Shown here: positions 9,929-10,960 of the stretch, in pieces
How the letters are laid out: each line of letters begins with the position of its first letter
Numbering within the stretch: position 1 is the stretch's first letter
Assembly (NCBI RefSeq): GCF_013122565.1
Contig: NZ_CP053258.1
DNA from: Escherichia coli
GTDB lineage: Bacteria; Pseudomonadota; Gammaproteobacteria; Enterobacterales; Enterobacteriaceae
DNA length: 64,000 bases
Direction: 5' to 3' (one strand)
Position numbers and translations under genes: made by a program
The notes under the pieces: model-generated
The model's database searches: none
What the model was told of the DNA's origin: nothing
The model's input: only the letters and a program-made list of their open reading frames with translations

Positions 9929-10960
9929 ATGATGAAAAGGATGATTGCGCTGGATGGCGCACAGGGCGAAGGCGGCGGGCAGATCCTGCGTTCGGCGCTG
10001 AGCCTGTCGATGATAACCGGCCAGCCATTTACCATCACCGGCATTCGTGCCGGGCGGGCAAAACCGGGACTGTTGCGCCAGCATCTGACCGCGGTAAAAG
10101 CAGCTGCGGAAATTTGTAGGGCAACGGTGGAAGGCGCGGAGCTGGGGTCGCAGCGTCTGGTCTTCCGGCCCGGCACCGTGCGTGGCGGCGATTACCGCTT
10201 TGCTATCGGTAGTGCCGGAAGCTGTACGCTGGTGCTGCAAACGGTGCTGCCCGCGCTGTGGTTTGCCGATGGACCTTCGCGTGTTGAAGTGAGCGGCGGT
10301 ACCGATAACCCGTCGGCCCCGCCTGCGGATTTTATCCGCCGGGTGCTGGAGCCGCTGCTGGCGAAAATAGGAATTCATCAGCAAACCACACTATTACGCC
10401 ACGGTTTTTATCCTGCCGGAGGCGGCGTGGTGGTGACGGAAGTCTCGCCGGTGGCATCATTTAACACCTTGCAACTTGGCGAGCGCGGGAACATTGTGCG
10501 GATGCGTGGTGAGGTGCTATTAGCTGGTGTGCCGCGGCATGTCGCTGAGCGTGAAATCGCTACGCTGGCGGGTAGTTTTTCCCTGCATGAGCAGAATATT
10601 CATAACCTGCCGCGCGACCAGGGGCCGGGTAATACCGTCTCGCTTGAAGTCGAAAGTGAAAATATTACCGAACGCTTTTTCGTCGTCGGTGAAAAGCGCG
10701 TCAGTGCCGAGGTGGTCGCGGCACAGTTAGTGAAAGAAGTGAAACGCTACCTGGCAAGCCCGGCGGCAGTGGGGGAATATCTCGCCGACCAACTGGTGCT
10801 ACCGATGGCGCTGGCGGGCGCGGGAGAATTTACGGTCGCCCATCCTTCATGCCATCTGCTAACCAATATCGCCGTGGTGGAGCGTTTCTTGCCGGTACGG
10901 TTTGGTTTGATAGAAACAGATGGCGTAACGCGGGTGATGATAACCAAACTCACTGATTAA
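9929..10960 (+). CDS. rtcA: RNA 3'-terminal phosphate cyclase
   Basis: [25 protein letters not shown]...; the extreme C-terminus may differ from K-12. Confidence 0.93.

Follow-up and report, generated by a model that had tools for sequence, protein, structure and literature searches.

The 3' end of rtcA, the gene for the RNA 3'-terminal phosphate cyclase, is remodelled in the 64,000-nucleotide stretch of Escherichia coli DNA analysed here (contig NZ_CP053258.1; called the window throughout). Between rtcA and malT, 889 bp carrying the toxin-antitoxin (TA) module AtaRT2 occupy the place that 49 bp take up in the empty site of TA-free genomes, and RtcA consequently ends in a different and longer C-terminus. 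The event is a replacement of 49 bp by 889 bp rather than a pure insertion. We consider it highly likely that one old event put AtaRT2 together with a 72-nt flank between rtcA and malT and overwrote the end of rtcA in doing so. The finding is real but biologically unremarkable: module and enzyme are both known, and remodelling of a gene end as a side effect is familiar. The insertion-linked C-terminus of EHEC-type RtcA is a minor, annotation-level insight. The features of the locus are collected in Table 1.

Table 1. Features of the rtc-malT region of the window, with the evidence on which each is placed.
Feature	Position	Strand	Evidence
rtcR	6917-8515	-	ORF list of the window
rtcB	8702-9928	+	ORF list of the window
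rtcA, RNA 3'-terminal phosphate cyclase, 342 aa	9932-10960	+	ORF list, PDB, Pfam, RefSeq
Altered rtcA end, codons 336-342 and stop TAA	10937-10960	+	Alignment with five TA-free genomes; RtcA comparison
Segment unique to the TA-bearing allele, 889 bp	10938-11826		Multiple alignment; E. coli genome search
Left flank, 72 nt, tail codons and spacer	10938-11009		E. coli genome blastn; plasmid comparison
Left copy of 9-nt direct repeat CAAACTCAC, within tail codons	10945-10953		Repeat search
Strong hairpin between convergent stops	10962-11006		RNAfold; inverted repeat search
ataT2, GNAT toxin, 161 aa	11010-11495	-	PDB 7f37_B; position of ECs_4262
ataR2, DUF1778/TacA-type antitoxin, 92 aa	11486-11764	-	PDB 7f37_C; Pfam TacA1; position of ECs_4261
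ataRT2 promoter/operator region, to within 4 nt of malT stop	11765-11826	-	Promoter-like site; palindrome; plasmid relatives
Right copy of 9-nt direct repeat CAAACTCAC, spanning malT stop	11826-11834		Repeat search
AAAC common to filled and empty alleles, right-hand junction	11827-11830		Alignment
malT	11831-14536	-	ORF list; alignments

Breakpoints of the replacement

The window and the TA-bearing genomes Combat11I9, EDL933, Sakai and MOD1-EC7003 were aligned with five TA-free genomes: K-12, E. coli CDF6, E. albertii, E. whittamii and Escherichia sp. E1V33. All aligned sequences agree up to ...ACG CGG GTG A. The last shared base is 10937, the first of rtcA codon 336, and homology between the two groups ends there. 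The TA-free genomes then read GC/GT ATT/GTT GAA TGA (S-I/V-E-stop), followed by a short hairpin spacer (GCCGGATCTGGCGCGTTATCCGGCT in the empty site of K-12, for example), AAAC and the stop codon of malT. In the TA-bearing genomes the sequence is instead TG ATA ACC AAA CTC ACT GAT TAA/TGA, and homology restarts only close to the malT stop, at the AAAC (11827-11830) that immediately precedes it. In the multiple alignment the stretch between common anchors measures 1044 nt in TA-bearing and 204 nt in TA-free genomes. Of the 49 bp replaced by the 889-bp segment, 11 nt are the end of rtcA (codon 336 without its first base, codons 337-338 and the stop codon), and the other 38 nt are spacer that contains a weak hairpin. 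On the other side, the C-terminus of MalT (...MMGYGV-stop) is the same with or without the TA segment. In K-12, malT and rtcA are convergent with stops 42 bp apart, and RtcA has 338 residues ending in ...GVTRVSIE. CDF6 has a malT 3' end identical to that of the window and yet an empty site, and it therefore provides a clean 'before' state.

A sequence-only reading of this DNA had raised the possibility that the breakpoint lies within the last rtcA codons, and the alignment with the five TA-free genomes bears this out by placing the end of homology inside codon 336. This codon is a hybrid of the ancestral first base A, from a Ser codon, and a new TG. Codons 336-342 are ATG ATA ACC AAA CTC ACT GAT, encoding MITKLTD, with the stop TAA at 10958-10960; relative to the ancestral protein the change amounts to S336M, I337 kept, E338T and an added KLTD, and it lengthens RtcA from 338 to 342 residues (an alternative ATG at 9929 in the ORF list would give 343). 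The RtcA end described in that reading is correct, as is the distance of 49 bp to the stop of the toxin gene, the spacer 10961-11009 being exactly that long; chance is not at issue here since this is a plain sequence fact and no statistical pattern. The same 342-residue RtcA lies beside a GNAT/DUF1778 pair in the RefSeq records of Combat11I9, EDL933 and Sakai. The further suggestion that the C-terminal residues derive from the insertion holds insofar as residues 336-342 lie on DNA found only in the TA-bearing allele, and has to be tempered insofar as this DNA belongs to 72 nt outside the TA unit proper. We prefer 'insertion-linked' to 'carried in from a donor', because the 72 nt lie outside the TA unit and 9 nt of them duplicate the malT-side junction.

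It could be argued that the altered tail arose independently, by a point mutation or a frameshift in the end of rtcA, and merely adjoins the TA pair. Just two of the three replaced residues really differ, and the TGAT that follows GTGA in the window has a counterpart in a TGATG located 8 nt further on in the ancestral sequence. Against this, beyond 10937 there is no alignment to the ancestral sequence, ATGATAACCAAACTCACTGATTAA is not obtainable from that sequence by any frameshift, and the searches for flank and module each gave the same number of genomes, 394. We rejected this explanation, which we regard as virtually impossible, on the lack of any alignable sequence beyond the breakpoint.

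Identity and relatives of the TA module

By sequence comparison, the TA pair in the window is an allele of the already known AtaRT2. The toxin matches PDB chain 7f37_B with an E-value of 9.5e-105 and TacT (5fvj) with 2.5e-42; its GNAT Pfam matches, at 22.7 bits for a cut-off of 20.7, are weak. The antitoxin matches 7f37_C (E 4.7e-55) and Pfam TacA1 (69.5 bits, E 2.5e-19). We take 7f37 to be the AtaT2-AtaR2 complex; its database label reads GNAT family N-acetyltransferase with a DUF1778 protein and nothing further, and a literature search with the code 7f37 returned unrelated papers only. The two genes form an operon on the - strand in which ataR2 comes first and overlaps the start of ataT2 by 10 nt, and a promoter-like site (11812..11785) lies upstream in a region that also contains an imperfect palindrome. 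In the Sakai annotation, ECs_4261 and ECs_4262 are located between malT (ECs_4260) and rtcA (ECs_4263). The locus tags ECs4261-ECs4262 of O157:H7 Sakai have been described as ataRT2, a bona fide GNAT-type type II TA module, and AtaT2 of O157:H7 as a GNAT toxin that inhibits translation, with toxicity and formation of the antitoxin complex reported (PMC7470980). The words rtcA and malT do not occur in that paper (PMC7470980), in which an effect of AtaRT2 on the neighbouring rtcA does not appear to be discussed.

Between EDL933 and the window, the toxin differs at 3 of 161 residues and the antitoxin at 1 of 92. In EDL933 and Sakai, as in the window, the module sits between malT and rtcA with the same two junctions and the same RtcA tail. 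The target of AtaT2 is said to be Gly-tRNAGly.

The closest relatives outside Escherichia are TacAT-like modules located between traD and traT on F-like plasmids of Salmonella enterica and Yersinia enterocolitica (loci L026 and L027, positions 3232-3983), with toxins 74-77% identical to AtaT2. Like AtaRT2, they are convergent with a downstream gene about 45 bp away. DNA homology to these plasmid modules extends from the promoter/operator to the toxin stop and then ceases. We therefore count 11765-11826, which is conserved in the plasmid-borne relatives, as part of the TA unit, and regard the 72-nt flank as specific to the Escherichia chromosomal allele, because the DNA past the toxin stop is unrelated in the plasmid modules.

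The 72-nt flank and its hairpin

In sensitive blastn searches of plasmids, no match began before position 146 of the 889-bp query, hence none within the flank, and a second copy of the flank was found nowhere in the E. coli genomes (E<=1). Exact pattern searches of JGI metagenome contigs with the hairpin core likewise gave no matches. An occurrence of CAGACTCATCAGTGTGACTATCCGG outside the rtcA context would point to the donor, and to whether TGATAACCAAACTCACTGATTAA came along.

Most of the flank beyond the tail codons folds into the hairpin between the convergent stops, with a predicted free energy of -22.5 kcal/mol (z -4.3) on the + strand and -20 kcal/mol (z -2.85) on the - strand, where UUUU comes next; the spacer of TA-free CDF6 reaches -7.1 kcal/mol on the + strand. 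From these predictions the new hairpin is likely a terminator for ataRT2 and probably one for rtcBA too. It was not called by a scan for consensus terminators, and an Rfam scan of 10700-11950 gave no matches. When the ends of the cassette were compared with the replaced 49 bp, no significant similarity was found except for the 8-nt hairpin arm GCCGGATC, which also occurs in the hairpin of the ancestral spacer (P about 0.05 in the comparison with K-12 and 0.25 in that with CDF6). Some ancestral sequence may conceivably have been retained through this arm.

Distribution of the filled allele

We searched 5426 complete E. coli genomes with four queries: the 1.4-kb region 10600-12000 (at least 80% coverage), the 889-bp segment 10938-11826 at full length, the 88-nt left junction 10925-11012 and the 72-nt flank 10938-11009 (word-11 blastn, E<=1). 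Each was found in 394 of the 5426 genomes, as a single copy per genome and on chromosomes only. About 7% of complete E. coli genomes (O157:H7, O55:H7 and O145 included), and S. dysenteriae, therefore have an RtcA whose C-terminus differs from that of K-12 and is four residues longer. The filled allele is spread over divergent lineages, namely the phylogroup E-type O157/O55/O145 strains, the divergent strain of the window, S. dysenteriae (left junction and RtcA tail are shared by Sd197 and relatives) and, as a remnant, a separate Escherichia species.

Whether an identical C-terminus occurs in TA-free strains had been named as the point on which the link between tail and insertion should fall. 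Among the 5426 complete E. coli genomes, neither the tail-encoding sequence in a TA-free strain nor a partial remnant was found. An identical tail and left flank are present without TA ORFs in Escherichia sp. MOD1-EC7003, where 228 bp separate the stops of rtcA and malT; this remnant (L006, positions 5030-5257) consists of a few mutated toxin fragments and a promoter stub, with the antitoxin deleted. Taken literally, MOD1-EC7003 is a TA-free strain with the identical C-terminus; in substance it supports the link of tail and cassette, because the left flank and a decayed toxin fragment are still there: in this genome the RtcA tail has outlived the TA genes that brought it. AtaRT2 thus illustrates how a small TA module that is not autonomous can reshape the gene next to it and mark it for good.

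The five sequences aligned in full (the window, Combat11I9, EDL933, Sakai and MOD1-EC7003) have identical left and right junctions, and the rtcA residues just 5' of the junction nevertheless vary among carriers. Given that the junctions are the same in every carrier examined, we infer a single event, after which the allele was passed on by descent and its flanks underwent homologous recombination. This makes the junction a clean single-origin marker for tracing the filled allele across Escherichia.

Several carriers show variation of their own. In S. dysenteriae (Sd197, L029; CP006736, L030; about 3800-5850) the same AtaRT2 module and tail are present and rtcB and rtcR are largely gone, with about 1 kb left between rtcA and glpR that contains a 184-residue RtcB fragment; in CP006736 the toxin is called as a 92-residue fragment only. 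E. coli O157:H7 TR01 (NZ_CP033605.1; H111/H141) has a 72-nt flank 100% identical to that of the window, other O157:H7 genomes one that is 95.8% identical (three differences, including the rtcA stop TGA for TAA); local recombination or mistyping of the strain is possible in TR01. As to the window itself, the best identity of its positions 20000-44000 to any of the 5426 genomes is 97.9% over 24 kb, and its exact RtcA and toxin proteins are recorded from one E. coli contig only (QJU27954.1 and QJU26583.1), which together place its lineage somewhat outside the well-sampled diversity of E. coli.

Ancestral state of the locus

E. albertii, E. whittamii and Escherichia sp. E1V33 all have the empty site, an RtcA ending in RVS(I/V)E and the same hairpin spacer. 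Most of 14 RtcA homologues of 53-60% identity end in (R/Q)VS(V/L/I)x, for example VRVSLA, VQVSVS or ARVSLE, a pattern seen in these homologues and no curated family feature; several distant homologues have natural C-terminal extensions. The RVMITKLTD of the window departs from the VS(V/L/I)x end of all TA-free Escherichia. We take the SIE-type end and the empty site to be ancestral for three reasons: the empty site contains 49 bp that are missing from the filled allele and hence cannot be made by deleting the cassette, it is conserved in the three other Escherichia species just named, and the end it encodes resembles that of most of the more distant homologues, Betaproteobacterial and other. 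The opposite polarity, in which the TA-bearing arrangement with MITKLTD was ancestral in Escherichia and the K-12-type SIE end with its short spacer came about by cassette deletion, could draw on the spread of the filled allele over divergent lineages, including the remnant in a separate Escherichia species; in the face of the three observations above we judge it extremely improbable.

The outgroup sample is small, as an exact-peptide scan of species representatives returned four Escherichia loci and no Salmonella or Citrobacter RtcA. Their absence may reflect the reliance of the method on exact peptides, or it may hint at horizontal acquisition of the rtc operon of Escherichia. After Escherichia, the closest RtcA proteins in the peptide scan (L008-L021) come from Betaproteobacteria and others at 53-60% identity (Chitinimonas, Dechloromonas, Azonexus). 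A separate observation concerns the last ~90 nt of malT (window 11831-11920), which fall into two divergent allele classes independently of the presence of the TA module: the K-12/E. albertii type differs from the window at more than 10 positions, the CDF6 type at none. This suggests old recombination tracts that end near the malT 3' end.

Origin of the segment

Under the favoured single-event reading, the incoming DNA would have consisted of the promoter, ataR2, ataT2 and the 72-nt flank with its strong hairpin, and would have entered the spacer between the convergent rtcA and malT. The shortened rtcA frame would then run seven codons into the new DNA, up to the first in-frame TAA. Joining was probably illegitimate, through short microhomologies (GTGA/TGA at the left junction and AAAC at the right one), with no transposase or integrase taking part. 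Vertical inheritance, together with homologous recombination in the flanking DNA, would subsequently have spread the filled allele, and the new hairpin would have become a shared terminator.

The TA ORFs are the only ones in the 889 bp; no ORF for a transposase or integrase was found among them, and a repeat search detected no terminal inverted repeats pairing the two ends. Lacking both terminal inverted repeats and a transposase, the segment is unlikely to be an IS or transposon insertion. Integrative elements such as e14 and phage 21, which insert at the 3' end of icd in E. coli and supply a substitute gene end, offer a parallel: there too the last codons and the stop of the host gene come from inserted DNA and the gene stays intact and presumably functional. 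These elements, however, bring an integrase and a homologous copy of the gene end, whereas AtaRT2 comes without an integrase and with a non-homologous end that changes the protein. An element of the icd/e14 type accordingly seems unlikely, there being no integrase ORF and the new rtcA end not being alignable with the old one.

One feature is not predicted by a single clean replacement. The 9-nt direct repeat CAAACTCAC has one copy 7 nt inside the left junction, within ACC AAA CTC ACT, and the other at the right junction, which points tentatively to duplication of the target or to a history of several steps. The 49 bp of the target are missing. In a two-step scheme, the TA unit would have inserted beside the malT stop, duplicating the target (C)AAACTCAC, and a later deletion would have taken the rtcA end and the ancestral hairpin, so that codon 336 became fused to a few nucleotides upstream of the left target copy. 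The K-L-T of the tail (AAA CTC ACT) would then be a reverse-complement duplicate of the malT stop region and not foreign DNA. The scheme predicts an intermediate CCGGCTAAACTCACTGATT, and that CAAACTCACTGATTAAAACCCC was not beside the hairpin before integration.

That the repeat is exact at nine nucleotides and located near both junctions gives this scheme, the main rival to a single event, its weight: the chance of a 9-mer common to windows of ±15 nt at both junctions is roughly estimated at 0.003, both copies are followed by ACCCC (in the left copy past an extra 8 nt), and the unit between the repeats would be a tidy block from promoter to hairpin. On the other hand, chance should produce about two exact 9-mer repeats somewhere within 1 kb, TGATAAC (10938-10944) is left unexplained, and the terminal inverted repeats and transposase are absent. 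The intermediate allele (SIE-stop, ancestral hairpin and cassette) occurs in 0 of the 394 carriers and the hypothetical cassette-free recipient GGGTGATGATAACCAAACTCACACCCC in 0 of the 5426 genomes. A search for a cassette-free allele with GGGTGATGATAACCAAACTCAC fused to malT returned ordinary empty sites only, as two-piece matches. On balance the two-step scheme seems unlikely to us, and we retain a single replacement as the preferred reading. Toxin cluster P0043 was also considered as a possible intermediate and set aside, as its short toxins are contig-end truncations.

Consequences for RtcA

Apart from its end, the window protein is a regular RtcA. It matches PDB 3kgd and 1qmh over residues 1-337 with E-values of about 1e-213 (2.6e-213 for 3kgd_A) and contains the Pfam domains PF01137 (RTC; 270.7 bits, cut-off 27, residues 12-324) and PF05189 (RTC_insert; 50.3 bits, cut-off 23). 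H308 in the 338-residue numbering is invariant in an alignment of 20 sequences; this is the adenylylated histidine of RtcA, His309 in the 339-residue numbering. K-12 RtcA (b4475, 338 residues; PDB 1qmh and 3kgd) has the same Pfam domains and the catalytic histidine and differs from the window at eight of the first 335 residues (about 97.6% identity). The two proteins part at the end, where K-12 has SIE and the window MITKLTD, which is four residues longer and lacks the conserved serine.

In an AlphaFold2 model of the window RtcA built from 20 sequences, the mean pLDDT is 93 with low confidence at the final residues only, and residues 332-339 (VTRVMITK) form the last beta-strand. Because the new tail extends this final strand outside the catalytic and Pfam RTC core, which ends at residue 324, it is probably tolerated and functionally neutral. 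A small effect on RtcA is possible given that the lost serine is conserved in distant homologues. As the K-12 protein was used for all structures, comparisons of the K-12 and EHEC Rtc systems should allow for the changed end.

It is also conceivable that the juxtaposition of AtaRT2 and rtcA is itself functional and couples toxin activity to the Rtc stress response, by either of two routes, although we hold this to be very improbable. Along the first, the strong shared hairpin that took the place of the weak ancestral one, and the promoter of a toxin that attacks charged tRNA, directed against the 3' end of rtcBA, the RNA-repair operon, would let transcription of ataRT2, or read-through from it, modulate the stability or termination of rtcBA mRNA in carriers such as O157:H7 and S. 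dysenteriae. Along the second, the new C-terminus would alter the interaction of RtcA with the CARF domain of RtcR, an interaction that has been described (PMC9650030).

A minor observation concerns the rtc operon of E. coli TUM9757 (NZ_CP128931.1; H40), in which the rtcA 3' region matches at query positions 207-338 only and the features under the match are the cyclase and rtcR. This suggests an internal rtcBA deletion in some E. coli strains.
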